A stretch of 64,000 nucleotides of DNA, taken from positions 64,001-128,000 of IMG/VR virus record IMGVR_UViG_3300025715_000012; one strand, given 5' to 3'. The notes below the pieces were generated by a model. It was not told the origin of the DNA and searched no databases. It worked only from the letters and a program-made list of their open reading frames with translations. Position 1 is the stretch's first letter. The number at the start of each line of letters is the position of its first letter. Made by a program: the position numbers and the translations under genes. Positions 3,528 through 59,231 of this stretch are shown here, piece by piece. The stretch is from a virus (Duplodnaviria > Caudoviricetes).

Positions 3528-4010
3528 ATGATAAAAAGGTTTAAAATTTTTGAACAACAACGAGAAGAAGATTTAGATGATCCTTGGGGAGAAGAAAAGA
3601 AAGTATCATTATTACCTGATTATTGGATAATTCATATTGAAGATGTGGAAGATATATTGGATGGTTTCGAAAACTTATTTGTCAATTCACTTCATTTACA
3701 TTTCTATACTGTTAATGATTATTGTGATGATGACAATTATAACGTTATAATATCTGACGCAAATTTAAATGGTGTTCAAATTGAAAAAATTTGCAAAAAT
3801 GATGGCAAATATGATGAGACAGATTATGTTTTTATAAAATGTGAAGATTTTAATGATATGATAGGCCTTTTTAATGATGCCATAGAACATTATGGGTTTC
3901 ACTTATATGAGGACATAGATGTGAATGGTGCGAAATTTATCGTTTCAAAAGAACCTTTGAGCGAAGAAGCTATATTACAAATATTAGATTATGAAGATGA
4001 AAATTACTAA
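3528..4010 (+). CDS. Hypothetical protein with CTS-like leader and DDPWGEE tag
   Basis: MIKRFKIFEQ...DLDDPWGEE. Confidence 0.7.
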   Translation: MIKRFKIFEQQREEDLDDPWGEEKKVSLLPDYWIIHIEDVEDILDGFENLFVNSLHLHFYTVNDYCDDDNYNVIISDANLNGVQIEKICKNDGKYDETDYVFIKCEDFNDMIGLFNDAIEHYGFHLYEDIDVNGAKFIVSKEPLSEEAILQILDYEDENY

Positions 4011-4051
4011 TTCCAAATATCACATATATTTTCCTTTTTGAATTTTATCTC

Positions 4052-4516
4052 TTAACCCAAAAAAACTATTGTGTTTCTTATTCTAGCAGCATTTTCATAA
4101 TCCTCAGCCAAAACATATTTATTCATTTTTTCTTTTAAATAGCCTAGTTGTATTCCAACTATCTCAGGATCTTCATATTTATAGTTTTCCAAAAGATCTT
4201 CAAATATTCTTTGGAAATTTTTATACTCTTTTATCATCAGATCATAAAAGTTATTATTCACCATTTCACTTAAAAAATTATTAAATTCCTCCTCAATACT
4301 TCTAGTTTTATCATATATTTGATAAGCATCTATCATTAATAGATCGATTGGATGAATTCTTGTATCTAACTGAGTCTTACTTAATTCATAAGTTTGAGCT
4401 TGTTCTAATAAATTCTGATATTTAAAATTTGTGTCATTACCACTAGTCATAAATGTCCACATCTTAACCCAATATAATAAAGTTAAAAAATCATCTATGT
4501 CTACACAACTTTTCAT
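4052..4516 (-). CDS. Hypothetical protein with C-terminal UVR (UvrB/UvrC) motif
   Basis: LKEKMNKYVLAEDYENAARIRNTI. Confidence 0.65.
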   Translation of the reverse strand: MKSCVDIDDFLTLLYWVKMWTFMTSGNDTNFKYQNLLEQAQTYELSKTQLDTRIHPIDLLMIDAYQIYDKTRSIEEEFNNFLSEMVNNNFYDLMIKEYKNFQRIFEDLLENYKYEDPEIVGIQLGYLKEKMNKYVLAEDYENAARIRNTIVFLG

Positions 4517-4749
4517 ATTATTTTTATATTAAAAAATATATGGAGTTTAAAAGAATTACATTGCATTAATGAATAATTTCTAAGGATTCGTCATGCCTTG
4601 CAAATATCCTGAAACATATGCCATTATAACTGATGGAGTTTCATGCCCACTTGTATGAAAAACGACTCTCCCTCTTATTGAAATTTCACCATAAAGCCCA
4701 TTATATTTGACAGAAAATGTTGGAGATATTTTTTTTTATTTTTTTTTTA

Positions 4750-5901
4750 CTATAAGACTCCAAGTACATTGGTTGATTTCACATAAAACGTGTCGAAATA
4801 TGGGTGATCTGCTGGTACACTATTTTTTAAAGTCACTGTAGTAGATTTAATTTTTCTTCTATCGTCGCCGTTATAAGTAAGCCAACCGTTTTTTAAAGCG
4901 AAGTTTTTCATAATTTGAGTTTTCGCCCCATTTATAGAATATATTCTATCCATATAAATCCTTCCATCATCTAAATTCCAAACAAGAGCCCTGGCAACCA
5001 ATTCATCATTTTCTATTAAAACCGCTAACGCTATTTTATCTGGATTATTGCCATATGTCCTTTGTATTCTAGATCGAAGACCTTTATACCTCATACAGGA
5101 ATTATTTAAAGAACCGCCTCCACTTTTATATCTACTTTCGTCATACCAATAAGCTATTTCTTCTCCTTTAACTATTTTGACTTTTTTTTCTTTTAATAAC
5201 TCATCCATTCTAGCTCTATATAAATCAACCAATTTTTCAATATCAGCTTCAGAATAATCTTTATTTAATTTCCTAAGAACTCTACCGACCCTAGATGATT
5301 GGCGATACCTTTCTTTATCTTCAGCTTTTACTCTTCTCGCTGGAATAAATGTAACATAAGTTGTAGGGTCTTCTTTTTGTATATCTATTGATGTTATGTC
5401 TAAATATTTTTCCTTCACTTCAAACTTAATCGACTTTAAAACTGATTTAAAAATTTGACTTGCTGTATATGGAATGAGTTCACCGGATTCTACTCTTTTT
5501 TTAATATCGAGATAGTCGCTCGTTAAAATTTCAACAAAATTTAGTTGTCCTGGCACTAATGATATCTCTTTTACCTTTTCGATTTCTACTCTATGATCAT
5601 ATCGCTGCCAATAATACGGTAGCATTTTTTTCAAATCTGGCGAAGACTCAACATATCCCCTTTGATACACTATTTTTTTTATTTCTACTGGCTCATCAAG
5701 TTCGACTTTTATTTCTTTTTGAGAATAATAACTGCTATTATCCACTAAAATTTTTTTGACTACACCAGTTTTACCCTTTAATTTCGTTAAACAGTCCAGT
5801 ATAGATACATTGGCAGTGAAAATGATTTTATCACCTACTTTAATATCAGCTATCTTAATTTCTTCATTTATAAAATCGAAATTGCTATAATTCAACAACA
5901 T
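4750..5901 (-). CDS. Phage protein, SCM/RALVW/DRIY/PYxD family, paralog 1
   Basis: GSLNNSCMRY, ARALVWN, YMDRIY, PYFDTF; CTS-like start (NFDFINEE). Confidence 0.75.
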   Translation of the reverse strand: MLLNYSNFDFINEEIKIADIKVGDKIIFTANVSILDCLTKLKGKTGVVKKILVDNSSYYSQKEIKVELDEPVEIKKIVYQRGYVESSPDLKKMLPYYWQRYDHRVEIEKVKEISLVPGQLNFVEILTSDYLDIKKRVESGELIPYTASQIFKSVLKSIKFEVKEKYLDITSIDIQKEDPTTYVTFIPARRVKAEDKERYRQSSRVGRVLRKLNKDYSEADIEKLVDLYRARMDELLKEKKVKIVKGEEIAYWYDESRYKSGGGSLNNSCMRYKGLRSRIQRTYGNNPDKIALAVLIENDELVARALVWNLDDGRIYMDRIYSINGAKTQIMKNFALKNGWLTYNGDDRRKIKSTTVTLKNSVPADHPYFDTFYVKSTNVLGVL

Positions 5902-10694: not shown

Positions 10695-11534
10695 ATGGGC
10701 AATATTATTAAAGATTATAAAAGATTTGTCAATGAATCAGTTGATTCTTCAATAAAATCAATTACAGACATACCAGAAGAAGTTTTTATGACAGCTAAAA
10801 AAATTGCTGCGGACTATTATGATAAAACCAGAAAACCAGTTTTTGAATTTTCGCCAGAAAAAGGATTGTTGATGAAATTTGGCGTGACAGATAAAGACTT
10901 TAGATTTGCTGAAGAAGGAACTTTGGAATTGGATTTGAATACTGCAGCAAAAAGAAAAAGAGATTATAATGTCACTTTGATCTATGATGACAAAATAACG
11001 GAAACAGAAGAGGTTCAATATATTGTCAAATTTGAACCGAATACGGAGCCTTACATAGAAGTCGATGGTGAAGATGAAGATAATGATTTTGTCGATGAAT
11101 ATGAATTGAATAAAGATCCAGAAGAGAATTTCGATGATGAAGATATTGATAAAAATATCAATAGGAGGATCAAGCAAGATGTTCAATTTATAGATAATGA
11201 TGATGATGATGATGATGATTTTTTGGATGAAGAATTCAATCCTCTGAAAAAAGAAGATTGGAAAAAAGCTGGAAAAACCATAAGAAAAGGAGTTGGAATT
11301 CTAACAAAAGAAGAAGCCGTTGAAAAGGGAAGAGAAATTGTGATGAATCATGTAAATAGAAAAAAGAAATATTTAGATTTATTGGAAGAAGATCCTGAGG
11401 CCGCTGAAAAATATCTTGAATTTTTTGGTCATAATCCAAATGGTATACCCGAGTGGAATAGTGAAAAAGAAGAGTGGATCGATAGAGCATTCTATTCATC
11501 AAATGTTGGTGGAAGTTGGGGTGGCGAATACTAA
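10695..11534 (+). CDS. Acidic hypothetical protein with CTS-like leader
   Basis: IIKDYKRFVNES leader; TAATATATA at 10660. Confidence 0.7.
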   Translation: MGNIIKDYKRFVNESVDSSIKSITDIPEEVFMTAKKIAADYYDKTRKPVFEFSPEKGLLMKFGVTDKDFRFAEEGTLELDLNTAAKRKRDYNVTLIYDDKITETEEVQYIVKFEPNTEPYIEVDGEDEDNDFVDEYELNKDPEENFDDEDIDKNINRRIKQDVQFIDNDDDDDDDFLDEEFNPLKKEDWKKAGKTIRKGVGILTKEEAVEKGREIVMNHVNRKKKYLDLLEEDPEAAEKYLEFFGHNPNGIPEWNSEKEEWIDRAFYSSNVGGSWGGEY

Positions 11535-11554
11535 ACTTGTGAAAATTATACAAA

Positions 11555-11860
11555 ATGATTGACGTAAGAGTTGGACACAATATTTTAATCTTACCGAGAT
11601 TACAATATTATATTGAAAAGAGAGATTGGGATGATATGTCCAGTCTTATTGGAAATATTTATACCATTAATAGAATAGAAAAAGCTTCAAATTGGGAAAA
11701 AGATGGTGAGGGCGGGGATATAATATATTGGTTTCGTGATCATAATGAATTAAGTTGGTTTGTCTATAGAGATTGTTTTGAAATCACGACAAGAAAAAGA
11801 AAAAGAAAATTAAATTTAGAAGAAGATCCTTGGGGTGAAGAAAACTGGGGATGGGAATAA
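11555..11860 (+). CDS. Small SH3/KOW-like domain with C-terminal DPWGEENWGWE tag
   Basis: Paralog of 11874; core also shared with 60516 and 60784. Confidence 0.75.
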   Translation: MIDVRVGHNILILPRLQYYIEKRDWDDMSSLIGNIYTINRIEKASNWEKDGEGGDIIYWFRDHNELSWFVYRDCFEITTRKRKRKLNLEEDPWGEENWGWE

Positions 11861-12236
11861 AATTTTTTGAATTATGGATAGTTATGAAGATATAAAAGAA
11901 GGCGATGAAGTTTTAATTCTACCGAGATTGGAATATTATATTGATAAAAGAGAGTGGCCTCGTATAATGAAAGATCTCATTGGAAATATTTATGTGATCA
12001 AAGAAATAGGCTTCGATGAGAGAAATATCACAGATAGTGAAGGAGGATTTGTCATATATTGGATCAAAGATTTTGGAGAACGTTGGTATGTTTATAGAGA
12101 TTGTATAGAACATATAACTAGAAAAAGAAAATTAAATTTAGAGGAAGATCCTTGGGGTGAAGAAAACTGGGGATGGGAATAAAATTTTTTGAATTATGAA
12201 TAGTTATGAAGATATAAAAAAAGGCGATGAAGTTTT
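11798..12236 (+). repeat. 117-bp direct repeat (11798-11914 and 12120-12236, 3 mismatches)
   Basis: Tag-coding end, stop, spacer and start of the next copy; period 322 bp. Confidence 0.9.
11874..12182 (+). CDS. Small SH3/KOW-like domain with C-terminal DPWGEENWGWE tag
   Basis: Paralog of 11555. Confidence 0.75.
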   Translation: MDSYEDIKEGDEVLILPRLEYYIDKREWPRIMKDLIGNIYVIKEIGFDERNITDSEGGFVIYWIKDFGERWYVYRDCIEHITRKRKLNLEEDPWGEENWGWE

Positions 12237-16739: not shown

Positions 16740-17069
16740 ATGAAACATATAAAATTATATGAACAATTTGACTTTGAAGACTTTTCTGATGAAGAACTTT
16801 TTGGAAAAGAGACGTTTAAACTCATTTTCAGTGGTCGTAGATTTTATATAGTAGAAAAAATTGAAAATAATATAGTTTTTTTATATAAAGGTTATAAATG
16901 GATATCTGATGAAAATTTAAAAAAATATTGTTTATTTTGTTTAGAAGAATTGGGAGAAAATGATGAAATAGCAATTTTTATCGGACATAATAATACGAAT
17001 TACCAGAAATATTGGGATATTTATACAAAAGATACATTACCAAAAGAAATAAAATATGAATTGAATTGA
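16740..17069 (+). CDS. DEELFG-leader cassette protein
   Basis: MKHIKLYEQFDFEDFSDEELFG...LPKEIK. Confidence 0.8.
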   Translation: MKHIKLYEQFDFEDFSDEELFGKETFKLIFSGRRFYIVEKIENNIVFLYKGYKWISDENLKKYCLFCLEELGENDEIAIFIGHNNTNYQKYWDIYTKDTLPKEIKYELN

Positions 17070-17470
17070 AACATATAAAACTATACGAACAATTTCATTT
17101 TGAAAACATTTTAAATAGAGATGGTTTTCAATTTATATCGCATTCAACTAAAGAAGATTGGGGTGAATCTATTTTAATAATGGAAAAAGAGGGAAAAGCT
17201 TTTGGTCGAATCTATTGGTATAATGATGATGATACTACAGTTTATCTTGATTGGCTCAGTGTAGATAAAGATGCCAGAAAAGGAGGATTAGGGACAATAT
17301 TACAAAAAATAAGAGAAGATATTGGTAAAGAATTGGGCGCCAAGTTCGCCTGTTTGTGGGTAAAAAAGGATAGTTGGATGCATGATTGGTATGAAAGAAG
17401 AGGATACAAAGATTATATGAATTATAAAGAAGATAAAAATTATATATGGATGCAAAAAACAATTGAATAG
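17066..17470 (+). CDS. GNAT acetyltransferase with CTS-like leader
   Basis: LSVDKDARKGGLGT acetyl-CoA motif; WYERRGY. Confidence 0.8.
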   Translation: MKHIKLYEQFHFENILNRDGFQFISHSTKEDWGESILIMEKEGKAFGRIYWYNDDDTTVYLDWLSVDKDARKGGLGTILQKIREDIGKELGAKFACLWVKKDSWMHDWYERRGYKDYMNYKEDKNYIWMQKTIE

Positions 17471-17791
17471 ATGAAGCACATAAAAATATATGAGCAATAT
17501 GATTTTGAGGATCTATCGGATGAGGAGCTTTTTGGAAAAGTTTCCTTTAAATTGATCAAGTTAAAAAATGATATATATTTTATATTAGAAAAAATTGAAA
17601 ATGGATATCTTTTTTTATATAATGGATATGAATGGAAAAAAGAAGAATTATATGAAGAGCCCAGCGTTAATATTGAAGATTTGAGTGATGATGATATAAT
17701 AACAACTCATGAAGAAATTAATGGAAATGGATTTTGGATGCGCTGGAATAAATACACGTTGCCAGAAGAAATAAAAGATAAGTTGAAATGA
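17471..17791 (+). CDS. DEELFG-leader cassette protein
   Basis: Leader plus LPEEIK end; paralog of 16740 and 61082. Confidence 0.8.
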   Translation: MKHIKIYEQYDFEDLSDEELFGKVSFKLIKLKNDIYFILEKIENGYLFLYNGYEWKKEELYEEPSVNIEDLSDDDIITTHEEINGNGFWMRWNKYTLPEEIKDKLK

Positions 17792-18132
17792 AACATATAA
17801 AATTATATGAACAATTTGATTTTGAGGATCTATCGGATGAAGAACTTTTCGGAATAGATAGTAATAAAGGACCTTATGATGATATTTTGATATACGGCGA
17901 TAGTGGGCCTAGTTTTAAATGTGGGGATAGAGTTAAAGTAATTAATAATGATGAATTTTATTATGAAGGAAAAAAAGGTGACATTGGTACAGTGATCACA
18001 TATAGTGATGGATCTTATTTAGTTTGCTTAGATGATTTTACTGCTGGACATAAAGGAGATCGTGATACAGATTATGAGGACACGGGTGGTGGTTTGTTCC
18101 AGAAGATCTTGAAAAATATGAAAAAAAAATGA
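17788..18132 (+). CDS. DEELFG-leader cassette protein, SH3-like; probable late frameshift
   Basis: Paralog of 61429. Confidence 0.75.
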   Translation: MKHIKLYEQFDFEDLSDEELFGIDSNKGPYDDILIYGDSGPSFKCGDRVKVINNDEFYYEGKKGDIGTVITYSDGSYLVCLDDFTAGHKGDRDTDYEDTGGGLFQKILKNMKKK

Positions 18133-18443
18133 AACACATAAAAATATACGAACAATTTAATCTTGATGACTTTTCAGATGAAGAGCTTTTCGGAAATGAT
18201 GACAATTATTTTCCAAAAGAAAATATAGAGAAATATTATTATGATTATAAAGAATTATTCAATCACACAAAATATGATGAAGAATACGGATATACAAATT
18301 ATGAATTATGGACTGAAGTTGGGCAATTGACTCTCAAATATAATCTCACAAGAGACGATGTCAAATGGATACTTGATAATAAAAACACGAGATTTGATAG
18401 TGATAAATTTCTAGAAGATACATATCTTCATTGGGACGATTAA
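18129..18443 (+). CDS. DEELFG-leader cassette protein
   Basis: MKHIKIYEQFNLDDFSDEELFG. Confidence 0.8.
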   Translation: MKHIKIYEQFNLDDFSDEELFGNDDNYFPKENIEKYYYDYKELFNHTKYDEEYGYTNYELWTEVGQLTLKYNLTRDDVKWILDNKNTRFDSDKFLEDTYLHWDD

Positions 18444-20361: not shown

Positions 20362-20814
20362 ATGATAATAAAGTTTGAAAATTATTTGAATGAAAACATA
20401 TTTATAAAAAATAAATATAAGAAACTTTATGATAAACTTTATGATTATATAGAGAACGGTCGTATAAGAATGATACCGAATATTTATTCAAATTTATATA
20501 GATTCAAAATTGAAAAAAATGCTGTATCAGTCGAGGATGATCCATTTGGTGAAGAAGGGGGGAGAAAAATCACTGTTGAAGTGTCAATAAAAAAACAAGT
20601 TGACATGGATATATTAAGATTGTATGAATATATTTTAGCAATAGATGGGAATGAAGTTGATATGCCAAGTTATTATGTCAAAAAATTATATGATTTATTG
20701 GATGATAGAGAAGAAGAAAATAGAGAAGAAGAAGAAAGGAAAAAGGAAGAACTGGAAATAAAACGTCAAAAAGAACGAGAAGATAAAATTAGAAATATAG
20801 AAGAAATATTGTAA
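20362..20814 (+). CDS. CTS-leader protein with internal DDPFGEE tag
   Basis: MIIKFENYLNE; same domain as both halves of 20819. Confidence 0.75.
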   Translation: MIIKFENYLNENIFIKNKYKKLYDKLYDYIENGRIRMIPNIYSNLYRFKIEKNAVSVEDDPFGEEGGRKITVEVSIKKQVDMDILRLYEYILAIDGNEVDMPSYYVKKLYDLLDDREEENREEEERKKEELEIKRQKEREDKIRNIEEIL

Positions 20815-20818: not shown

Positions 20819-21679
20819 ATGTTAATCAAATTTGAAGATTATTTAGGTGAAAGTATATTCAATAAAAAATATCAAAAATTATTTGATAATTTATATAATT
20901 ATATTAAAAAAAACATACAACTTATAGATGTTGAAACGACAAAAGATTATCCATACAACACTTATGCTTTCAACATTGTGAGATCTATTAAACCTGATTC
21001 AGATGATCCATTTGGAGAAGATTCTGAATCCAAAAAAATTAGAATAAGATTATCAAGAGGTTACGCTTCATTTACATTGGTGATCAATAAAGATATAATT
21101 GATATGCCATCCAATGATATTAGAAAATTATACAATTTGATAGATAATAGAGCTTCAATAATAAGAAAAAATATAGAAAAAGGAAAAGAAAGGGAAAAAG
21201 AGGAAAGAATTAAAAATCTTGATAGTTTTTTTGAAAAAAAAATGTCGAAAAAAGATTATTTAGACGAGTCTCTGTTCAAATCCAATAAATTATATAGCGA
21301 ATTGTATAAAAATTTATATAACTATATTCTCAAAAACTATTCTAAATTGAATGTCATAAAAGATAGAAATAATGAATACGAAATCAATCTAATAAAAACA
21401 GATCTTATGGATGAAGATGAATTCGGTGAAGATTCATCAACGACAATTTTGAAAATAAAAATCGAAAAAAATCGTGATTTTTCTTCATGGTTTAAAGATT
21501 ATTGGTATGCATTATATATCAATGGAGATAGAATAGATATGGAATATCGATATCTCATTAAATTGTATAATTTAATAGATAAAATAGAAAAGTCAAAAGA
21601 AAAAGAAGAGTTCAAACATTCTGAAAAAGAAAAAGATGAAAAGTTGACGAGTGTTATTGATATTTTAAAAAATAAATAA
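20819..21679 (+). CDS. CTS-leader protein with two tandem copies of the 20362 domain
   Basis: YLGESIF and YLDESLF unit starts; DDPFGED and EDEFGED. Confidence 0.75.
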   Translation: MLIKFEDYLGESIFNKKYQKLFDNLYNYIKKNIQLIDVETTKDYPYNTYAFNIVRSIKPDSDDPFGEDSESKKIRIRLSRGYASFTLVINKDIIDMPSNDIRKLYNLIDNRASIIRKNIEKGKEREKEERIKNLDSFFEKKMSKKDYLDESLFKSNKLYSELYKNLYNYILKNYSKLNVIKDRNNEYEINLIKTDLMDEDEFGEDSSTTILKIKIEKNRDFSSWFKDYWYALYINGDRIDMEYRYLIKLYNLIDKIEKSKEKEEFKHSEKEKDEKLTSVIDILKNK

Positions 21680-42113: not shown

Positions 42114-42404
42114 TTAATTTTCACTAATTTCCTCCCAACCCCAGTTTTCCTCGCCCCAAGGATCATCTTTTAAATTTAGTATTCTTTTACTGTTCGATGG
42201 ATAAATTAAATGAAAATATACATCATAACAACAATTATCTTTACCGTGTAAATATTTGTTAAAACTTGTGGGGAATTTAATTCTAGCCCACCCAGCCGAA
42301 GAATGGATTAATATAATTTCTCCAATTTCACCTTTAAAATCAATGTTGTCCATTTTTCCATAAACAGAAACTTTATCTCCAATATGTAATTCTTCTATTT
42401 TCAT
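42114..42404 (-). CDS. SH3-like domain with C-terminal DPWGEENWGWE tag
   Basis: Core shared with the 45873 N-terminus and 55548 domain 2. Confidence 0.75.
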   Translation of the reverse strand: MKIEELHIGDKVSVYGKMDNIDFKGEIGEIILIHSSAGWARIKFPTSFNKYLHGKDNCCYDVYFHLIYPSNSKRILNLKDDPWGEENWGWEEISEN

Positions 42405-42485
42405 ATAACATATATATTAAAAATTTCACCAATTTTCCTCTCCCCACGGGTCATCTTCTAAATTTAATTTTCTTTTATATGGATT

Positions 42486-43889
42486 TTAAAAATAACTACT
42501 TCCATCCCAACAATGTGTGCATAACTTACATTTTGGTAATCCTATCGCGTCAACCAGATCTCCAAGTTCTTGATATTTTAAAGACGAGCATCCCATATTT
42601 TCACTTATTTTATTTACCATATTATTATATCTATCGCTTTTGGGATTAGAATATTCATCCAAATGTGAATCTTCTTTTCCTTCTATTTCTTTAATAACTC
42701 TTCGACCTATTAAATCCAATGATGTTCTCGAGATTGAGAAGTTTAAAAACTCACAAGGAAAAATCAATGGCGGGCAAGCCGGTCTAATATGAACTTCTTT
42801 TGCCCCATATTTGAACAAAGTTTGGGCATTGTTTTTTAGCTGAGTTCCTCTTACAATAGAATCATCCAATAATGCGATTTTAGCATTTTCTGTTATTTCT
42901 TTTATTGGTATAAGTTTCATTGTTGCCACTAGATCTCTATCTGCTTGATTTTGAGGCATAAAACTACGGGGCCAAGTAGGAGTATATTTAACTTCTGATC
43001 TTTTATAAGGTATCTTTTTTTCATTTGAATATCCTATGGCGTGAGCTACTCCTGAGTCAGGCACACCTGTAACAAAATCTACTTCTACATAATCTTTTTT
43101 TGCTAGCGCTCTTCCACAACGGTATCTAGATGATTCAACATTCAACCCCTCATAATAAGAACCAGGAAATCCATAATAAACCCAAAGAAAACTACAAATT
43201 TGCATTTTTTCTTCTTCTGGTTTAATTTGTTCATATTTATCTGGCGTTATAAATAATATTTCACCTGGTCCAATGTATTTTTCAACTTCATATCCCAAAT
43301 TAACAAAAGATGTTGTTTCCGAGCCAACTGCAAAAGCTCCATCTTTTTTACCCAAAACTATCGGTGTCCTGCCCAATTTATCTCTCACTGCGTACATTCC
43401 ATCTTTTGTTAGTACGATCATCGAGCACATACCCCTCACTTGCTCGAAAACATTTCTAAATCCTTCCTCAAAGGTGTCGCATTCATTAATAAGAGCAGCG
43501 ACGACCTCTGTTGGATTAACACCTATTCCACTCATTTCCAGAAAATGGACGCCTTTCTTTAAAAATCTATCTGTTATCTCTTTTAAATTGGTTATGCGAT
43601 TTGTTGTCGTGATGGTATATTCACCCAAATGAGATTTTAAAATAAGCGGTTGAGATTCATTATCACTTATGCAACCTATTCCACTATTACCTTTAAAATT
43701 TTTTAGTTCGTCTTCAAATTTTGTTCTAAAATATGAATTTTCTATACTATGTATAACTCTTGTAAAACTTCTGCCATCAAAAACTGACATTCCCCCTCTA
43801 CGTGTTCCAAGATGAGTGTTATAATCTGTGCCATAATATAAATCCCTGACACAATCTTCTTTAGAAATTACTCCGAATATTCCTCCCAT
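42486..43889 (-). CDS. purF: Amidophosphoribosyltransferase (no N-terminal catalytic Cys)
   Basis: GVPDSG, LLDDSIVRGTQ PRPP motif, CPP..FPC, C..CW Fe-S ligands. Confidence 0.92.
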   Translation of the reverse strand: MGGIFGVISKEDCVRDLYYGTDYNTHLGTRRGGMSVFDGRSFTRVIHSIENSYFRTKFEDELKNFKGNSGIGCISDNESQPLILKSHLGEYTITTTNRITNLKEITDRFLKKGVHFLEMSGIGVNPTEVVAALINECDTFEEGFRNVFEQVRGMCSMIVLTKDGMYAVRDKLGRTPIVLGKKDGAFAVGSETTSFVNLGYEVEKYIGPGEILFITPDKYEQIKPEEEKMQICSFLWVYYGFPGSYYEGLNVESSRYRCGRALAKKDYVEVDFVTGVPDSGVAHAIGYSNEKKIPYKRSEVKYTPTWPRSFMPQNQADRDLVATMKLIPIKEITENAKIALLDDSIVRGTQLKNNAQTLFKYGAKEVHIRPACPPLIFPCEFLNFSISRTSLDLIGRRVIKEIEGKEDSHLDEYSNPKSDRYNNMVNKISENMGCSSLKYQELGDLVDAIGLPKCKLCTHCWDGSSYF

Positions 43890-48337: not shown

Positions 48338-48970
48338 ATGAGACATTTAAAAGTATACGATGAATATTTAAAAGAGGAAAAAAGTTGGTTCAATTTTTTA
48401 AAAAAACCAACGAAATATAAACCAATTCCAATTGACGAAAATGATCCTTGGGGTGAAGATACTCATAGAGAATATACTTTTGGTGATTGGTTTAAAAACA
48501 ATCGATCAAAAATAAAAAATTCTAGATTTCCTTTTTTAATAAAAACAATTGACTGCTCTCAAAGTATGATAACCAGTCTCAAAGGAATCGAGAAATTAAT
48601 AAATCTTAGTTCTTTGACCTGCGCAGGAAATCTATTAAGTGATTTAAAGGGAATAGAAAATTTAAAACATCTGGAAATTCTATGGGTCTATGACAACAAA
48701 CTGAAAAGTATAAAAGAAGTGAAAAATTTAAAAAATTTAAAAGAATTTTCTTGTTCTGGCAATCTATTAACAAGTTTAGAGGGAATAGAGAATTTGATAA
48801 ATCTTGAAAGATTATATTGCTATCTAAATCCAATAACTTGCGTCATTGGTATAGAAAAATTGAAGAATCTTCAGCAACTATATGCGTTTGGTGGCACTAT
48901 GTTTTCAGAAACATATAAAGAATATTTGAAAAAATATTGTAGGAAAAAAAATATAGGATATATAATATGA
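48338..48970 (+). CDS. Leucine-rich repeat protein with CTS leader and DPWGED tag
   Basis: LxxLxCxxNxLxxLxGIExL repeats. Confidence 0.85.
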   Translation: MRHLKVYDEYLKEEKSWFNFLKKPTKYKPIPIDENDPWGEDTHREYTFGDWFKNNRSKIKNSRFPFLIKTIDCSQSMITSLKGIEKLINLSSLTCAGNLLSDLKGIENLKHLEILWVYDNKLKSIKEVKNLKNLKEFSCSGNLLTSLEGIENLINLERLYCYLNPITCVIGIEKLKNLQQLYAFGGTMFSETYKEYLKKYCRKKNIGYII

Positions 48971-50898
48971 AAGTTAAAAAGATAAAAGATTTTAAGAGAA
49001 AAAACGTTTTAATATTTTCTGGATCGGCACGTTATAGAAATAATTGCCCTGGACAAGATAGCAAGACATTACAAATGATAAAGAGTTTGGATTTTCCAGA
49101 TTTCGATTTTGAAATTATAGATTTGTCAATAAAAGATGAAGATCCTATCATTCAACCTTGTAAAGGATGCATTTCAACGGCCGGTGGAGCGCACTGTCAT
49201 TGGACTTGTATAGGTGGTGATCAAAGAGTACAGACTGAATACGGATATAAAGAAATATCGCAGATTATAGAAAATGACATCTTATCTACCGGTTTGGTTG
49301 AAAAATCTTGGAATACTTCACCGAAAGAAAATATATATGAAATTGTTTTAACAGATGGAAGAAGATTAAAATGTACTAAAAATCACTATATAAAAACTTT
49401 AAGTAATAAAAGAATTAGAACGATTAATAGTTTATGGAAATTTTATAGAGAAGAAGAATATAAAAAACTAGAAGATATCAAAATAGGTGATTTTATGCCT
49501 GAACCAATTTTAGGAGGGAAATTTAAAGTTGGCGGAGAATATGATGAAAAATATTTTTTGATGGCGGGATTGATTTGGGGAGATGGAACATTTTGTAATG
49601 ATAGTTTAATATTATTTTATGATAATATAACAGAACCAGAACACGGTAAAAAAATACAAGAATTTTTTTCAGATTATATAATTAGTATAAAGGAGCATAA
49701 AACTAATATACAAGACGATTATATTAGAGAAGGATTTAGAACAAAATGTGAAATGATGAAAATAAATTTTGGTGCTAAAAATGGTAGGATTATAAAAAAT
49801 ATGGGATTTATAAAAAATTCCTCACATACTAGGAGATTGCCAGAAATACTGTTCAATTCTAATGAAATGGAATTGGGTTATTTTTTTAATGGCTGGTTTT
49901 CGACTGATGGATCAGTAAATAATAAAGGAATATCACTTTATAATGTGAGTTATGAATGTTTAAGAGATGCCCAATTATTATTGTTTAAGATGGGCATTAA
50001 ATCTAGTGTTTATGATATGAGAAAACACAAAACAATTGTGCGAGGAAAGGAATTAGAAAGGGCATCAATGTTATCAATAACAGGACATGATAATTTAATT
50101 TTATATAAAAATAAAATTGATTTTATTAATCCTTATAAAAAAAACCAATTAGATAAAATATTATCGGTTAAAACAAAAAGAATGAAAAACAAACCGCCTA
50201 AAGTAAAGGAAATAAATTATATTGGCGAAGGCCCGGTTTATGATTTAACTATATCTGGGACACACGAATTTATAACCGAAGGGATATTGGTTCATAATTG
50301 CGATTGTTATAAAAAAGATGATAAGGAGCATCCAGATTTTATGTATGAAAAAAATATCTATGAAAAATTGGAAAAATGCGATGCTTTTATGGTTATAACT
50401 CCAATAAACTGGTGGAGCGTTCCAACACAAGTAAAAGCGTTGTTTGATAGACTGACATGTGCATCTTTAACCATGACAACCGAGCAGGCTAAGAAAATTT
50501 TTGGCGAAAAAAATGTTAAAGATCCAGATGTGACAAAGCCTTTTTCAGAAACAGAAGAGTTCAAAAAAATAGCTAAGAATCATTTGGAAGGAAAGGTCGC
50601 TGGATTTTTTATTCATGGTGATGATGGGGCAGATGATTATGTGGATAAAAAAATACCAGATTCATATAAAAAATATAAACAAGGAATTTGGGAAGATCCA
50701 AAAAGTGCCATAATGCCGATAGTTTGGCAATGTAGATATATGGGTATAGATGTTCCAGATGATTTAATAGAATCTTTCTATATGAATGAAGAAATAAGTT
50801 ATAGCGAAGCCAATGATAAATACGAAAAAGGAAAACTTGATTTCGCAGTTGATAAAATGAATAATTTTGTAAAAAAAGTATATAATTACATAAAATGA
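48967..50898 (+). CDS. Flavodoxin-fold iron-sulfur flavoprotein or FMN reductase, intein-containing
   Basis: FSGSAR, PCKGCISTAGGAHCHWT/CDCY, TPINWWSVPTQVKALFDRL. Confidence 0.85.
   Translation: MKVKKIKDFKRKNVLIFSGSARYRNNCPGQDSKTLQMIKSLDFPDFDFEIIDLSIKDEDPIIQPCKGCISTAGGAHCHWTCIGGDQRVQTEYGYKEISQIIENDILSTGLVEKSWNTSPKENIYEIVLTDGRRLKCTKNHYIKTLSNKRIRTINSLWKFYREEEYKKLEDIKIGDFMPEPILGGKFKVGGEYDEKYFLMAGLIWGDGTFCNDSLILFYDNITEPEHGKKIQEFFSDYIISIKEHKTNIQDDYIREGFRTKCEMMKINFGAKNGRIIKNMGFIKNSSHTRRLPEILFNSNEMELGYFFNGWFSTDGSVNNKGISLYNVSYECLRDAQLLLFKMGIKSSVYDMRKHKTIVRGKELERASMLSITGHDNLILYKNKIDFINPYKKNQLDKILSVKTKRMKNKPPKVKEINYIGEGPVYDLTISGTHEFITEGILVHNCDCYKKDDKEHPDFMYEKNIYEKLEKCDAFMVITPINWWSVPTQVKALFDRLTCASLTMTTEQAKKIFGEKNVKDPDVTKPFSETEEFKKIAKNHLEGKVAGFFIHGDDGADDYVDKKIPDSYKKYKQGIWEDPKSAIMPIVWQCRYMGIDVPDDLIESFYMNEEISYSEANDKYEKGKLDFAVDKMNNFVKKVYNYIK
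49207..50298 (+). mobile_element. Intein with LAGLIDADG homing endonuclease (364 aa)
   Basis: C1 CIGGD, block B CTKNH, MAGLIWGDG, FFNGWFSTDG, VYDLTI..HEF..GILVHN followed by Cys. Confidence 0.93.
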
Positions 50899-51710
50899 TA
50901 GAATATAAGATGTCAGCGGAAAACAGAAAGATATACTCGGATAATATAAATCGAGTTTTATTTCCTATGTATAGAAAAATGGGCAAATTGAAAAGATTGA
51001 GCCCCCATAGTATGTTTGGAGTAGTTGACACTGGATATGATTTACCAAGTGGAACAAGATCTTATGATTTTTATAATGGAAAAGATCCATATTGGTCTTT
51101 TTTGAATTATGTTAATACCAACATGCGTTCTTTCGCTGTTATTATGAAGCATTATAATGAAATGAATGATGAAAAAATATATAACGTGGACACCGCAGAT
51201 AAAGTCACAAAAGTAAATAATTTTATAAATGAATATGCCGAAGAAATATTCAAACCGAGCGATGGTGTGTTTCGAGATTGTTTGTGGGATATACTTGGAA
51301 AAATATCAACGACTAGATTTTATGGAGATTATGCCGAAGAAATAGCCGCTAGATTGTTGACAGAGAAATATAATATGGAAAATGTGGATAAAAGTGTTCC
51401 TGGCGATAAAAGAGATGCTTTCTATGGAGTTGATATAACATTTGACTTTAAAGGTAAAAATCAAACAGCTCAATGTAAGATTTATAACAATACTGGTTTA
51501 AAATTAGAAAATGGCGGTTATCTATTTAGTGGTCCAGCAATTACAAATTATAAAAACATAGATTATTTTATTTTTGTGAATATGAATATGAGACATTTCT
51601 ACATATTTCGCACAATTAGTAAAGCCACAGGCGATAGAATAGAAATAAATGAAAATGGATACTTTTTTAAAGAATCCCTAAAAGTAGATGATGGAAGATA
51701 TGAATATTGA
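50895..51710 (+). CDS. Hypothetical protein, PD-(D/E)xK-like
   Basis: GDYAE...DAFYGVD...TAQCK. Confidence 0.6.
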   Translation: MIEYKMSAENRKIYSDNINRVLFPMYRKMGKLKRLSPHSMFGVVDTGYDLPSGTRSYDFYNGKDPYWSFLNYVNTNMRSFAVIMKHYNEMNDEKIYNVDTADKVTKVNNFINEYAEEIFKPSDGVFRDCLWDILGKISTTRFYGDYAEEIAARLLTEKYNMENVDKSVPGDKRDAFYGVDITFDFKGKNQTAQCKIYNNTGLKLENGGYLFSGPAITNYKNIDYFIFVNMNMRHFYIFRTISKATGDRIEINENGYFFKESLKVDDGRYEY

Positions 51711-52704
51711 AACATACATATTACAACATGCTTTTGAATTAAAGTTTCATGAGTCTAGGGATGATTATTTTGAATTTTTTCGAAATAAACTCGAAAACTC
51801 TTATATAAGATGTAAGCTCATTTCAGGTGCACGAGAAATAGAAGAGCACGGTAAAATAAAAAAAGTTACAATCAATCCAATAGATACAAGATCCATTGCG
51901 ATTTATATAATTATGGATAATGGTGATGAGGGATATATACATGTTTATGAACCAATTGTAATATCAAAGAAACCGTTCGAAAAAATTATAAAATTTGATT
52001 CAGAAGATGATCCATTTGGTGAAGATGCAGAATGGCATTGGGGTGAAATAAAAGAATCGAACCATACAATAGAAAATTTTACTATTGGCGATATAGTAAG
52101 ACTGGATAGGAATACAAAAGAATATAAAGAACTTTATCCACATCGCAGATATTTTTATGAGGTAGGAGAAGACGAATTTGGAGTTGTGGAAAGGGTTCTA
52201 TATAACGAAAATTTTATTATAGTTAAATGGGGAAGTGGATATTCAAATGCCTATAGATCAAATGAACTTATTATTGATATAAAAAAAGAAAAAAGAAAAC
52301 AAAATTTAGAAGATGATCCTTGGAATGAAGAAGATTGGGGATATGAAGAAATAAAAGAAAAAAATCATATGAAAAATTTTAGAATGTTTATAAACGAAAA
52401 TTATACTTTAACCATCGCTGATGGAGAAAGTGATTCTGAAGCCGTGTGGCTCGAAGAATGTGATGTGTCTGATATCTGGTCTGATTATAAAAGTGAAAAG
52501 ATAAATGAAAACAATTTCATCAACACTTATAATAGAAGACTCGTTGGGAAGAAAGATAAGCTCGTAAAAATTGGAGTTAAATGTTGGAATGAATTAGCTA
52601 AATTGATAAGAGAAGGAAATGATGATATGATGAAATATTTAGATGACATTTATGATTGGGCCGATAAATACGGAGTTAAAATAATATCAAAGAAAAATGA
52701 TTGA
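51688..52704 (+). CDS. Three-module tagged polyprotein
   Basis: DDPFGED..WGEIKE and DDPWNEEDWGYEEIKE linkers; internal leader MKNFRMFINE at 52369. Confidence 0.75.
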   Translation: MMEDMNIETYILQHAFELKFHESRDDYFEFFRNKLENSYIRCKLISGAREIEEHGKIKKVTINPIDTRSIAIYIIMDNGDEGYIHVYEPIVISKKPFEKIIKFDSEDDPFGEDAEWHWGEIKESNHTIENFTIGDIVRLDRNTKEYKELYPHRRYFYEVGEDEFGVVERVLYNENFIIVKWGSGYSNAYRSNELIIDIKKEKRKQNLEDDPWNEEDWGYEEIKEKNHMKNFRMFINENYTLTIADGESDSEAVWLEECDVSDIWSDYKSEKINENNFINTYNRRLVGKKDKLVKIGVKCWNELAKLIREGNDDMMKYLDDIYDWADKYGVKIISKKND

Positions 52705-53383
52705 TGTCAAAAAACTTTTTGTGAAATATCATGGTTATGTTGAATGTCTACATATAGCTAAGATTTTGGCTAATATGGGATTTAAAGTTTATGGATACAA
52801 TTTCACATTTAAGAGTCATTTGATTGATTTATATATGGATTATAAGGGATTATATTTTAAATATGATGAAAAGTTTGAAACGCCATATTTTACTCTGATA
52901 GATGATGATTCAATTGAAGGATATAAAACTATTGAATATGAAGATTTTATAAAAATTATTAAAAAAGATTTTCCAGAATTCATGGCAAAAAAATTAAAAA
53001 GAAAAATAACTGAAGATGATCCTTGGGGCGAAGATTCTACATTTGAAAAATTTAATATATACAATCATATGATAACAAAATTTCAAATATTCGAGAAAAG
53101 ATTTCATCCGGCCGTGGGTGAATATTATCAAATAAATTACTGGGTTACAGGAGAAGTTGCGCCTGTTAAAATTTTAAAAGTCAATCCGAATAATACTTAT
53201 TTGGTTGGATTTGATGTTGAAGGAAGCTCGGTCCGAGGAGCTCCGAATGTCGTTATAAAAAATTCTGATATTGTTGCTCCATATAAACCAATAAGAAGTC
53301 CGGTTGGATCAGGGTTTATATCAACGAACACGAATATGAGTATACGTCAGGTGCATCAAGTTTCAAATGATATGTACTTGTAA
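52697..53383 (+). CDS. Two-module fusion with internal promoter and start (53069)
   Basis: DDPWGEDS, then TAATATATA, then MITKFQIFE and a Tudor/SH3-like domain. Confidence 0.7.
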   Translation: MIDVKKLFVKYHGYVECLHIAKILANMGFKVYGYNFTFKSHLIDLYMDYKGLYFKYDEKFETPYFTLIDDDSIEGYKTIEYEDFIKIIKKDFPEFMAKKLKRKITEDDPWGEDSTFEKFNIYNHMITKFQIFEKRFHPAVGEYYQINYWVTGEVAPVKILKVNPNNTYLVGFDVEGSSVRGAPNVVIKNSDIVAPYKPIRSPVGSGFISTNTNMSIRQVHQVSNDMYL

Positions 53384-53392: not shown

Positions 53393-53869
53393 TTAACTAT
53401 CTTCTCCCCAAGGATCATCCAATTTTTGCTCTTCTGGTAAATCTTCTATCGCAAAATATATATCATTGAATATTTTCTTTAAAGTGGACTCTCTTCTTCT
53501 TTTACAATATTCATATGGCTGTAATCCAATTTTTGGTCCAGTATCGTTGAAACTATCTATAATATGATCTCCGCGTAAAACAATGGCATCATAAAGCATA
53601 AATTGGTATTCTTTTTCAGAAACATATTTAAAAATATAAATATCATAATTCTTATGATGACAAAGGGCATATGTTGAATAATCGGTAGATTTGCCATAAG
53701 CGGCTTTAAACTCTATATTTGGAAAATCTCTTATTATTTCAAATCCAGCAGCATTTAGAATCTCGGTTTCAAAATCATTGAAATATGGTCGTTCTTGATT
53801 ATTTTGAATTCTCCTTTTACGAATTTCATCATCTGATGGCATGAATTTGAACTGTTCGAAACTCTTCAT
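53393..53869 (-). CDS. CTS-leader protein with C-terminal DDPWGEDS tag
   Basis: MKSFEQF...LDDPWGEDS. Confidence 0.7.
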   Translation of the reverse strand: MKSFEQFKFMPSDDEIRKRRIQNNQERPYFNDFETEILNAAGFEIIRDFPNIEFKAAYGKSTDYSTYALCHHKNYDIYIFKYVSEKEYQFMLYDAIVLRGDHIIDSFNDTGPKIGLQPYEYCKRRRESTLKKIFNDIYFAIEDLPEEQKLDDPWGEDS

Positions 53870-55120: not shown

Positions 55121-55537
55121 AAAATCATAAAAAGTTTTTTAATATATAGAACAAAATTTAAATAATTTTAAATGAATATTCTCAAATTCAATACTTTTAA
55201 TTCTGTAAATGAGCAAGATGATAATGGTTTTTATGTCGGGCAAAAAGTTTCTTTAAAAGAAGAATTGATAGGTGGTTACTCAGCATATTTTACTAGAAGA
55301 GTTATAAAAGATAATGATGGGACCATTGTTCGTATTAACTTTAATATGGAATATCCATTAATTATCGACTGGGGAGATGATTCTGTTGCCAATTATCGTG
55401 TGAGTGAAATAATACCAAAGGGAATGAAAATAAAAAGAAAACAAAATCTAAAAGACGATCCTTGGGATGAAGAAAATTGGGGGCATGAATTTGTGAAAGA
55501 AAATCATAAAAAGTTTTTTAATATATAGAACAAAATT
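55121..55537 (+). repeat. 38-bp exact direct repeat containing the late promoter (55121-55158 and 55500-55537)
   Basis: AAAATCATAAAAAGTTTTTTAATATATAGAACAAAATT occurs twice. Confidence 0.9.
55172..55528 (+). CDS. CTS leader, SH3-like domain and DPW tag
   Basis: MNILKFNTFNSVNE...DDPWDEENWG. Confidence 0.75.
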   Translation: MNILKFNTFNSVNEQDDNGFYVGQKVSLKEELIGGYSAYFTRRVIKDNDGTIVRINFNMEYPLIIDWGDDSVANYRVSEIIPKGMKIKRKQNLKDDPWDEENWGHEFVKENHKKFFNI

Positions 55538-55547: not shown

Positions 55548-56546
55548 ATGGTTAATTCTTTTTATGTCGGGCAAAAAGTTTCTTTAAAAGAAGAATTGAT
55601 AGGTGGTCGCTCAGTGTTTTTTAGTAGAAGCGCTATAAAAGACAACGATGGAACTATTGTTGATATTAATTTCAATAATGAATATCCATTAACTATCGAC
55701 TGGAAAAACTCCAAGGATGTTGATTACACAAAATGTTATCGTTATGGGGTAGATGAAGTTGTACCAAAGGGGATGAAAAGAAAACTGAATTCGGATGATC
55801 CCTGGGGAGAAGAGAATTGGGGATGGGAAGAAGTGAAAGAAAATAATAACTATAAAGGTTTCAATATTGGAGATGAAGTTTTTGTACATGGGCACATGTC
55901 CAACATTCACTTTACTGGTCAAAAAGGAACTGTAATAAAGATTTTTGATTATTCAGATAGAATTTTAGTTAAATTTCCAGAACGATTTGATGACAATTTA
56001 CACGATGGAAATGGAGATGATGAAACAAATAGTTCATATTATATTGATTATGAACTTTTAACATTAGCCGACAATAAAAAAAGAAGAAGAAAACAAAATC
56101 TAAAAGACGATCCTTGGGATGAGGAGTATTGGGGATGGGAATTTAAAAGAAAAACCAATCCAGATGATGATCCTTGGAATGAAGAAGACTGGGGATGGGA
56201 GGAAGTAAGTGAATCTAATAAATTTGATAATTTAATTGATTATTATATACCTTTTAAAACGAAAGAAGAAATGATCACAATAGCTAAAAAATTGGATGAG
56301 TTGGAATATATTGTTGCAAATTATAGAGAAGTTATTGTTGGAGTAGGATTTGATAATCCAGGACACAAGGTTTATTGTTACCATAAAGGAAAATTTATGA
56401 GGGCGACAATAGATTTTGCTAATTATAATAATAAAAAAAAATTGAGCCTTGAAGATCTCATTGGGTTCAAAAAAGGAAAAAGAATAACTAATCCAGATGT
56501 TGATCCTTGGAATGAAGAAGACTGGGGATGGGAAGAGATAAAATAA
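55548..56546 (+). CDS. Three-domain polyprotein with four DPW tags
   Basis: DPWGEENWGWEEVKE, DPWDEEYWGWE, DPWNEEDWGWEEVSE, DPWNEEDWGWEEIK. Confidence 0.8.
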   Translation: MVNSFYVGQKVSLKEELIGGRSVFFSRSAIKDNDGTIVDINFNNEYPLTIDWKNSKDVDYTKCYRYGVDEVVPKGMKRKLNSDDPWGEENWGWEEVKENNNYKGFNIGDEVFVHGHMSNIHFTGQKGTVIKIFDYSDRILVKFPERFDDNLHDGNGDDETNSSYYIDYELLTLADNKKRRRKQNLKDDPWDEEYWGWEFKRKTNPDDDPWNEEDWGWEEVSESNKFDNLIDYYIPFKTKEEMITIAKKLDELEYIVANYREVIVGVGFDNPGHKVYCYHKGKFMRATIDFANYNNKKKLSLEDLIGFKKGKRITNPDVDPWNEEDWGWEEIK

Positions 56547-56814: not shown

Positions 56815-56816
56815 TT

Positions 56817-57005: not shown

Positions 57006-57014
57006 AAATTTTAT

Positions 57015-57530: not shown

Positions 57531-57796
57531 AAAATATGAGAAAAGATAAAAATTACTACATAAAAGAAATAGAAGTCGAAGAGTGGTTGTCTATTGATGA
57601 AGGAATTCAAAAACATAGATTTAATGATAGAATCGAATATAAAAAGAATTACGAGCTTCATCGCGAGGATGGTCCAGCTGTAGAATATTTTGATAACATC
57701 GGAAATCAATATTATCTAAATGGAAAGAAATATACAGAAGATGAATGGAAAAATATACAAAAAGATAAAATTATGGGATTGATTATATCATCGTAA
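57527..57796 (+). CDS. LHRxDGPA-motif phage protein
   Basis: LHREDGPAVEY...YYLNGKK. Confidence 0.75.
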   Translation: MKNMRKDKNYYIKEIEVEEWLSIDEGIQKHRFNDRIEYKKNYELHREDGPAVEYFDNIGNQYYLNGKKYTEDEWKNIQKDKIMGLIISS

Positions 57797-58789
57797 AGAC
57801 ATATAATTATAATTCAATCTTATAGCGTTATCCAAACAATGTTCTTCTATTTGATTAGCATAATTTCTATCAAAATTATTTGATACGGCGTCGAGTTCTT
57901 GTAAATCTTTCAGCTCTTTTATTTCGTCTATATTGTTCAATTTATTATGGCTAACATCCAATATACCTAAACTAAAACATTTTGTTAAATGCTTTAAAGT
58001 GGTTATTTCATTATAAGAACAATCCAAATTGAATAAACTATAAGAATCTTCTATTCCACTAAGATTTTCTAGTTTATTATGCGAGCAATCAACATAATCC
58101 ATATTTTTGCCTTTTAACCAATGTAATGATTCTATTGAGTTATGCGAGCAATCTAAAATCGCTAAATTCTTTAAATGTTTTAAATAATATAAATTTTTTA
58201 TGTTGTTATATTGACAAGCCAAACTTTTCAAATTTGTGAGATTTTGAATACCGTCTAAAGAATCAATATTTTCTCTCGAACAATCTATAAAAGATATTTT
58301 ATTCCAAAACGATTTATCAGGATATTTTTTCTTTATGAATTTCATTAAACTGTTATCTTCTGGCTCAGCAAATTTAAAAGTATAGTTCTCTATTTTAGGA
58401 GATTTCATATTAAAAATATATATCAGATCATCAACACAATCCTCGATAAAAAGGCTATCATTAGAGATAATGTTATTGTTATATTTTTCTCCCCCTTTAA
58501 CAACAAAAACATTTACTTTATGCTGGTTAATTATAACTTTTTCTTTAGTATTTATATTATGAATTTCAATATAATTTCCATAATCTTTTATGACATCATT
58601 GATAAAATTCCTTAGAGTGTTTATATCTTCTTTACAAATATACCAAGCTCCTTTCAAGTTAAAAACTTTATTTTTTCTAAAATACTGCATAACTGGATCA
58701 TCTTTATGGGGTGGCAATAAAAGTTGTCCGGATTCATATACCCGATTCGATTTTAATTCACTAACAAATTTAGAATATGGACCTAACAT
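57788..58789 (-). CDS. Leucine-rich repeat protein
   Basis: LDCSHN.I..L repeats in the C-terminal half. Confidence 0.85.
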   Translation of the reverse strand: MLGPYSKFVSELKSNRVYESGQLLLPPHKDDPVMQYFRKNKVFNLKGAWYICKEDINTLRNFINDVIKDYGNYIEIHNINTKEKVIINQHKVNVFVVKGGEKYNNNIISNDSLFIEDCVDDLIYIFNMKSPKIENYTFKFAEPEDNSLMKFIKKKYPDKSFWNKISFIDCSRENIDSLDGIQNLTNLKSLACQYNNIKNLYYLKHLKNLAILDCSHNSIESLHWLKGKNMDYVDCSHNKLENLSGIEDSYSLFNLDCSYNEITTLKHLTKCFSLGILDVSHNKLNNIDEIKELKDLQELDAVSNNFDRNYANQIEEHCLDNAIRLNYNYMSLR

Positions 58790-58823
58790 ATTACATATAT
58801 ATTCTATTTAAAAAATGAATTTT

Positions 58824-59231
58824 TTATTCTTCTTCTCCCCAAGGATCATCCTCTGGACTCAAATTGCTTTTTTTTCTTTCTGTTTTATGATAAATGGTGT
58901 TATCAAAATTATTATCAATATATCTCCTTAAAATAACCTCGTAATATTTCGTGTTTGAAAACATCCTATCTTTCATTTCTTCGTAATATTTCTCAGTGGA
59001 TAATTGAGCAAAGGATGTTGCAACACCGTCTTCATAACGAATTTCGAATAAACCATAAGGTTCTTTAGTAACTTCATCGAAGCCTCCACCATCTTCTTTT
59101 AAAGTTCTATTATAACTATATCCACATTTACTACAAAAAATATATTCTTCATCGCTTTTGTAGTAATATTCATCAAAGCACTCGCTTTCACATCTCGGAC
59201 AAGAATAATCATATGATATAACGCTTCCCAT
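58824..59231 (-). CDS. Zinc-ribbon protein with C-terminal DDPWGEEE tag
   Basis: CPRC...CSKCG. Confidence 0.7.
   Translation of the reverse strand: MGSVISYDYSCPRCESECFDEYYYKSDEEYIFCSKCGYSYNRTLKEDGGGFDEVTKEPYGLFEIRYEDGVATSFAQLSTEKYYEEMKDRMFSNTKYYEVILRRYIDNNFDNTIYHKTERKKSNLSPEDDPWGEEE

Follow-up and report, generated by a model that had tools for sequence, protein, structure and literature searches.

A position-independent acidic-aromatic peptide on the proteins of a Mahaphage lineage looks like an address label

Why should many unrelated proteins of one huge, freshwater-type phage share an eight-residue peptide that stands at the start of some of them, at the end of others, and between the modules of still others? 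The question is raised by a 64,000-nucleotide (nt) stretch of viral DNA, hereafter 'the window', which comprises bases 64001–128000 of a 147,412-bp viral contig (G000) with a G+C content of 29%. A reading made from the sequence alone had described about 23 copies of this peptide in the window, in the form DP[W/F]xE[E/D], and had supposed that it docks onto one hub protein. As argued below, the peptide, here called the 'tag', looks like an undescribed address label; on sequence grounds, it is likely read by one lineage-specific, co-evolving receptor; and loading into the head is the best-supported, though unproven, destination of its carriers. For the combined statement—an address label, a single lineage-specific receptor, and loading into the core of a T4-like prohead—our estimate of the probability is about 0.45. 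A portable docking tag, taken alone, we consider highly probable.

The tag, its carriers, and selection on the peptide

A six-frame regular-expression scan with DP[WFY]x[ED][ED] returns exactly 23 copies in the window, in agreement with the earlier count, and 36 over the full length of the contig, each of them in the sense frame; neither 20 mononucleotide shuffles nor a reversed-pattern control yields a single match. All but one of the window's copies (22 of 23) lie in frame within intact open reading frames (ORFs), and the remaining copy stands 3′ of an in-frame TAA. Seven contigs together hold 164 tags on 124 of 1191 ORFs (~10%), with 44 copies N-terminal, 76 internal, and 44 C-terminal (≤14 residues from the C-terminus). 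The core pattern is [ED]-x-D-P-[W/Y/F]-G-E-E-x-W, and the second Trp is kept in 97% of the C-terminal copies. N-terminal tags follow, after 2–5 residues, a leader of the type M-K-x-L-K-x-Y-E-Q-F. At module ends, the consensus of 21 copies runs from KRKxNL through an acidic pair to the tag, and then on to xWG[WYF]EE and [IV]xE[NS]; the KRKxNL prefix and the NWGWE extension noticed earlier are thus genuine for the linker and C-terminal form. Tags between modules are spaced roughly 100 amino acids (aa) apart.

Codon usage in the tag indicates that selection acts on the peptide. In 91 tag copies from five related contigs, the codons for Gly (GGA 23, GGT 24, GGC 11, GGG 2) and for the first Glu (GAA 69, GAG 22) agree with genome usage. 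The observed Gly codon identity between two tags (0.34) equals the expected value (0.34), and synonymous sites have therefore not been homogenised. The Pro codon is CCT in 65 of the 91 copies, though CCA is the usual genomic codon; the same bias is seen in Pro-Trp pairs outside the tag (35 CCT to 4 CCA), and it arises because CATG is avoided genome-wide (observed/expected ratio [O/E] 0.47), not from selection on the DNA of the tag. In Tyr-form tags, CCA is used freely at Pro. This synonymous-site analysis, which the sequence-only reading had suggested for separating protein-level from DNA-level selection, finds synonymous sites free and selection at the level of the protein.

Once the tags are masked, the carriers split into many small families, and 62 of the 97 tagged modules have no BLAST relative. 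Of the 99 carriers with a length of 100 aa or more, leucine-rich repeat (LRR) proteins make up 14, a handful have other Pfam matches, and 80 belong to no Pfam family. The carrier types named earlier fare unequally: LRR carriers are confirmed by Pfam, and a zinc ribbon can be seen as the pattern CxxC-x18-CxxC in the ORF at 58824–59231, whereas SH3-like carriers are plausible only, from a beta-rich module in a weak model and one Pfam SH3_13 match among the carriers. The AlphaFold model of a four-tag protein of the window (mean predicted local distance difference test [pLDDT] score 40.9, from a two-sequence alignment) is too poor for use. The model of an LRR carrier, built from 15 paralogues, has a pLDDT of 91, with residues 1–20 (leader and tag) below 50 and without secondary structure, and leader and tag are accordingly predicted to be disordered in this protein.

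The same domain may bear the tag or do without it. A ~70-aa domain occurs as four paralogues in the window, two of which are leaderless and end in a long tag (ORFs 11555–11860 and 11874–12182), while the other two carry a 22-aa leader, are tagless, and stop right behind the domain (60516–60776 and 60784–61074). Whole modules distinguish the orthologues P0001 (window 55548–56546, the four-tag protein) and P0002, and the differences fall exactly at tags; in P0001, the back-to-back pair at 56109 and 56169 marks the site at which P0002 holds a whole extra module. With synonymous sites free, cargo unrelated, and the tag disordered in a confident model, the earlier description holds: the tag is a short linear motif that is portable, independent of position, and selected at the level of the protein.

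Lineage and putative receptor

Among the genes of the window are those for GroEL, DnaJ, PPK2, and an AsnB-like amidotransferase, as well as a flavodoxin-like gene with an intein. The GroEL shares 77.5% identity with that of LR756501, a 735-kb genome of the Mahaphage clade, for which Bacteroidetes hosts are predicted (PMC7162821). Related contigs hold T4-type head genes: a portal, a Gp23-family major capsid protein (MCP), and a gp21-type protease domain fused to a scaffold (~810 aa). All three were found in G004, G005, G008, and LR756501, and the Gp23-family capsid protein of the related contigs is 85.5% identical to its LR756501 counterpart. From the GroEL likeness and the T4-type head genes on related contigs, it follows that the contigs are fragments of Mahaphage-type huge phages; CheckV completeness values carry no meaning for them. 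PPK2 was considered as tag-bearing cargo and rejected, the DPYIED of the G005 enzyme belonging to its conserved N-domain and being a false match of the regular expression.

Of 1.84 billion proteins, 91 representatives match a 30-position profile of the linker tag, in as many as 11 stretches of a single protein. The Tyr form, D-P-Y-G-E-E-x-W, occurs in ~30 further IMG/VR contigs, in 47 copies on 39 of the 294 ORFs of the 243-kb contig G005, and in 111 copies in LR756501. The tag is absent (0 copies) from three other Mahaphages of 634–642 kb, from LR756500, and from one Lak phage; the W form is absent from 185,579 species-representative bacterial and archaeal genomes; a tblastn search of GenBank phages with a 10-tag protein found no copy in a cultured phage; no PDB sequence matches the tag profile; and the searchable literature on the motif offers only unrelated eukaryotic matches. 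As far as these searches reach, the tag is confined to one, uncultured Mahaphage lineage. If it is an address label, it would reveal the means by which a phage with 0.7 Mb of genome sorts some 10% of its proteins.

The aromatic residue is W in 72, F in 10, and Y in 1 of the tags of the window's group, Y in all 47 tags of G005, and Y in 22 and F in 12 tags of G008; no protein with at least three tags mixes W with Y or F. Because the residue is uniform within a lineage, a single receptor with a lineage-specific pocket is the simplest reading. Gene conversion is an unlikely cause of the uniformity, since the synonymous sites around the aromatic residue are scrambled; lineage-specific duplication could account for part of it. 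With its W, F, and Y forms, the tag offers a natural series of specificities that could lead to the receptor.

The sequence-only reading had compared the tag with the acidic-aromatic tail of single-stranded DNA-binding protein (SSB). The SSB acidic tip is likewise a disordered, acidic-aromatic docking peptide, but it is strictly C-terminal, whereas the tag occurs at any position. Moreover, the analogy is inverted, because SSB is one carrier with many receptors and the tag has many carriers and, presumably, one receptor. The DP[FW] motifs of eukaryotic endocytic adaptors, which bind the AP-2 alpha appendage, share with the tag the literal D-P-[F/W] core, the acidic context, and the presence of multiple copies in disordered regions. 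They are, however, eukaryotic motifs and do not contain G-E-E-x-W, and the tag belongs to a phage of Bacteroidota-type hosts (PMC7162821); the likeness is at most convergent.

The prohead as candidate destination, and its rivals

We infer, more weakly than the single receptor, that the T4-like head is the destination and that cleavage occurs at the linkers. On diverse small proteins, the tag stands N-terminally (behind a leader resembling the T4 capsid targeting sequence [CTS]), at the extreme C-terminus, or on every inter-module linker. The tagged proteins would be co-assembled with the protease-scaffold protein in a T4-like prohead core, cleavage at the [IV]xE[NS] site behind the linker tags would separate the modules of a string, and the cargo would become part of the head's internal or ejected proteins.

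The T4 CTS has the sequence MKTYQEFIAE, and a hydrophobic-x-Glu site is typical of T4-type proteases. In the protease-scaffold fusions of the related contigs (G004:53933–56380, G005:127379–129805, and G008:55710–58181), the scaffold part contains ~13–14 repeats in tandem, each of 14 residues and of the type Y-[ST]-E-Y-I-A-E-N, which have a hydrophobic-x-Glu site and are close to the T4 CTS. Behind the repeats lie a Q-rich acidic stretch, a small beta domain, and a helical C-terminal domain. A count by eye finds [IVL]xE, and then mostly N or S as in the scaffold repeats, behind about 21 of 25 long linker tags, and cleavage after Glu is common to the related prohead proteases of T4, phiKZ, and SPN3US (PMC5694885). 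A CTS-like leader within the first 13 residues is found in 59% of N-tagged and 38% of C-tagged ORFs, compared with 17% of untagged ORFs and 4% at control positions (odds ratio for C-tagged vs untagged ORFs 3.0, p = 0.002).

Tagged, truncated paralogues exist of every prohead component: three of the MCP and one each of the portal, the protease, and the scaffold repeats. One of the MCP pieces (G000:9755–10465, outside the window) is a 236-aa paralogue of the C-terminal third of a T4-type MCP, and its tag sits in the loop that, in the true capsid protein, has the sequence V-D-P-Y-M-R-W-D-D. LR756501 contains a duplicate of the prohead protease domain (178 aa; 11315–11851, minus strand) with a C-terminal tag. 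The main enzyme's D-H-P and S-S-R stretches are replaced in this copy by G-Y-P and F-R-P-R, and it may be catalytically dead. The tagged protein with scaffold repeats has three of them in 207 aa. The tag is present on 3 of 6 fragments of head proteins vs 3 of 45 fragments of other large proteins, an enrichment that depends on very small numbers. Among the portal, protease, and capsid genes of G004 and G005 stand several ORFs of 250–650 aa with similar, homing-endonuclease-like N-termini; such ORFs may account for the scattered head-gene fragments.

The T4 CTS and the cargo-loading peptides of encapsulins are closer analogues of the tag than the SSB tail. Encapsulin peptides are short, conserved, flexible C- or N-terminal tails that direct diverse cargo inside an HK97-fold shell. 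The tag, too, stands on a flexible terminal tail (pLDDT <50 beside an LRR domain at 91) and has diverse cargo; however, the motif is a different one, and encapsulins have no internal or linker copies. Encapsulin cargo genes also adjoin the shell gene, whereas tag carriers are scattered over hundreds of kilobases, and no tagged gene lies within the head module of G005 at 120–146 kb.

Like the CTS of the T4 proteins IPI-III and Alt, the tag is a short, portable peptide on unrelated, fast-evolving small proteins of phages with T4-type head genes, and it stands next to putative Glu-specific sites of the prohead protease. It differs from the ~10-residue, N-terminal peptide of the MKTYQEFIAE type in its unrelated sequence, in being N-terminal in only 44 of 164 copies and otherwise internal or at the extreme C-terminus, and in its abundance (up to 11 copies per protein, on ~10% of all ORFs); head loading, moreover, is inferred for the tag. 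In T4, the CTS loads diverse, unrelated internal proteins and is then removed by gp21, and it is this peptide, as well as the scaffold repeats, that the leader often paired with the tag resembles (PMC7411985, PMC3012670). A C-terminal propeptide of the SPN3US protease has been proposed to target the enzyme into the prohead (PMC7411985, PMC3012670). The propeptides of phiKZ and SPN3US head and ejection proteins are N- or C-terminal, 20–130 residues long, and family-specific, not one shared octapeptide; the parallels are that these phages, too, are giants with many proteins inside the head, that processing takes place after Glu, that a C-terminal propeptide has been proposed to serve in targeting, and that the prohead protease has a diverged paralogue (PMC5694885, PMC7411985).

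Besides the small numbers behind the fragment enrichment, several observations weigh against loading into the head. The window's own contig has no head genes, so that the link to the head depends on related contigs. The four LR genomes without the tag share the protease-scaffold fusion, with matches spanning the repeat region and the C-terminal domain (the Lak phage has no match to the scaffold part). Since these tag-free sister Mahaphages, LR756502, LR756504, and LR745206 among them, keep the architecture, the scaffold as such needs no tag, and the scaffold repeats were rejected as a tag-specific dock for the same reason. Transmembrane helices are predicted in 6 of the 124 tagged ORFs, which is odd for head cargo; tagged cargo is no more basic than other proteins by net charge; and the extreme C-terminal tags have no cleavage site behind them. 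A promoter-like motif, consisting of a T-run followed by AATATATA(A/G), lies 25–35 nt upstream of ~23% of ORFs (11-fold enriched), and AATATATA precedes 27–29% of tagged and 22–23% of other genes, which is not a significant difference.

A broader reading, to which we subscribe only tentatively, is sorting on the scale of the proteome. In one lineage of the largest known phages, a receptor that co-evolves with the W, F, and Y forms would read an eight-residue label on ~100 proteins per genome. Clients with a single tag, multi-tag strings that reach 11 modules, and the tagged pieces of each prohead component would all belong to this system; the label would be a cargo-loading or compartment-targeting code without phage precedent, and the tags would double as junctions for module shuffling.

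Docking to a hub in the cytoplasm instead of the head seems unlikely to us. The hub would be either a host factor or a phage-made compartment or condensate, with multi-tag proteins as scaffolds (valency 3–11) and single-tag proteins as clients. Indeed, multi-tag strings, with their basic (KRK) and acidic-aromatic blocks, resemble sticker-and-spacer scaffolds, a few of the tagged proteins are membrane proteins, the AsnB-like enzyme has, or had, a tag, and a lineage-specific tag is what a host-specific or newly invented hub would lead one to expect. Such a hub would leave aside the enrichment of the tag on head-protein fragments, its coupling to a CTS-like leader, and the scaffold-type [IV]xE[NS] sites behind linker tags, and no candidate hub was seen, nor was a phage ClpP found. 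A phage-encoded Clp degron system was accordingly rejected, there being no ClpP in any contig or in LR756501.

It is rather improbable that the tag is itself the site of a specific processing protease, with the cut, say, behind [W/Y/F]-G-E; in that case, ORFs of several modules would be polyproteins and N-terminal leaders would be removed. The roughly 100-aa spacing of tags between modules would suit such a role, as would the presence of Glu at two fixed positions, the first with a hydrophobic residue two places ahead of it, given that the related proteases of T4, phiKZ, and SPN3US cut after Glu (PMC5694885). However, 44 of 164 tags lie ≤14 residues from the C-terminus, many with only 1–4 residues past the second Trp, where cutting would be pointless; although 76 copies are internal, this sets the tag apart from the cleavage sites of viral polyproteins. 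At least eight positions are invariant, far beyond the needs of a T4-type site, and the linker tags are already followed by a separate [IV]xE[NS].

Very improbable, in our view, is a passive structural element without a partner, i.e. an inter-domain spacer, a solubility tail, or a self-folding mini-motif inherited together with modules. The tag is highly charged and recurs as a linker, and no partner appears in the results, all of which would fit. Against this stand its presence on unrelated folds and at either terminus, the mutually exclusive use of either the tag or another leader by the same domain, and its disorder in the LRR model; moreover, unless something reads the tag, it is difficult to see why W, Y, and F should replace one another lineage-wide while D, P, E, and E stay nearly invariant.

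An element of the DNA itself, for instance a site of recombination or homing that is translated by chance, is scarcely credible, because, although modules are gained and lost exactly at tags and P0008 contains tandem duplications of module plus tag, every copy is in the sense direction and in frame, variation at third positions is that expected from the codon usage of the genome, the W and Y forms are two bases apart with the peptide pattern retained, the reversed-pattern control is zero, and recombination at tags is better seen as a by-product; purely DNA-level conservation was rejected on the codon analysis, which largely refutes this reading.

If the tag is an address label, it would single out ~100 candidates per genome for effectors that are ejected or lie inside the head, LRR proteins and numerous orphan domains among them. 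Small and not bound to one position, it would also be a peptide with which foreign proteins could be loaded into a capsid of very large size.

Tag copies in the window and other observations

The positional classes drawn up in the sequence-only reading agree with the ORF coordinates. Tag coordinates are given here in brackets, on the plus strand unless marked as minus. In the N-terminal class, DPWGEE stands at residue 18 of ORF 3528–4010 (3579–3596), behind a leader of the MIKRFKIFEQ type; the tag of ORF 24250–24558 (24289–24306) follows the leader MKHLKIYEQF, and that of ORF 38940–39194 (38991–39008) likewise follows a leader. On the minus strand, the tag occurs at residue 10 of ORFs 32740–33006 (32962–32979, minus) and 33634–33819 (33775–33792, minus), and at residue 11 of ORF 36941–37357 (37310–37327, minus). 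The tag of the LRR protein 48338–48970 is N-proximal (48443–48460).

Internal copies include DPFGEE in ORF 20362–20814 (20539–20556) and DPFGED in its paralogue 20819–21679 (21005–21022). ORF 51688–52704 has a linker tag of the DPFGED form between modules (52009–52026) and a second linker tag (52315–52332) followed by EIKE and the leader-like start of the next module. In ORF 52697–53383, the internal tag (53018–53035) is followed by the leader-like MITKFQIFE, which suggests that this ORF is two fused genes. The four-tag protein 55548–56546 has three linker tags (55797–55814, 56109–56126, and 56169–56186), the second and third back-to-back, and a fourth, C-terminal tag (56502–56519).

The C-terminal class begins with ORF 11555–11860, in which the tag (11825–11842) has the KRKLNL prefix and the NWGWE extension, and its paralogue 11874–12182 (12147–12164). 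Long-form tags are C-terminal in ORF 42114–42404 (42147–42164, minus) and C-proximal in ORF 55172–55528 (55457–55474). At the extreme C-terminus are the tag of ORF 53393–53869 (53399–53416, minus), which ends one residue before the stop in a protein that has an N-terminal leader too, and that of the zinc-ribbon protein 58824–59231 (58830–58847, minus). The copy outside an intact ORF is an intact 18-codon tag (42432–42485, minus; core 42435–42452), which is followed by TGA and lies 3′ of the in-frame TAA that ends the AsnB-like gene 42486–43889. This tag has either been severed recently from the AsnB-like gene or gives rise to a tagged isoform via stop-codon read-through.

The small-gene arrays at 60516–62096, 16740–18443, and 23279–24253 share the 22-aa leader, which consists of MKHLKLYEQF and, behind it, acidic residues up to a closing L-F-G; the second half of this leader is similar to a degenerate tag (acidic, acidic, x, aromatic, G, x, E). 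The promoter-like motif occurs throughout the window, e.g. upstream of 48338, 53869 (minus strand), 55172, and 55548, and the capsid, portal, and protease genes of related contigs have it as well. The intein-bearing gene (48967–50898) is flavodoxin/FMN-reductase-like and is split by an intein with a LAGLIDADG endonuclease domain, according to Pfam. At 30444–31217 (minus strand) lies a homologue of M28-family peptidases (phrog_4191), of which longer homologues in related contigs have an extra module that also exists as a tagged module. Across the whole contig set, CATG (O/E 0.47) and GGCC (O/E 0.46) are strongly depleted, which suggests restriction-site avoidance.

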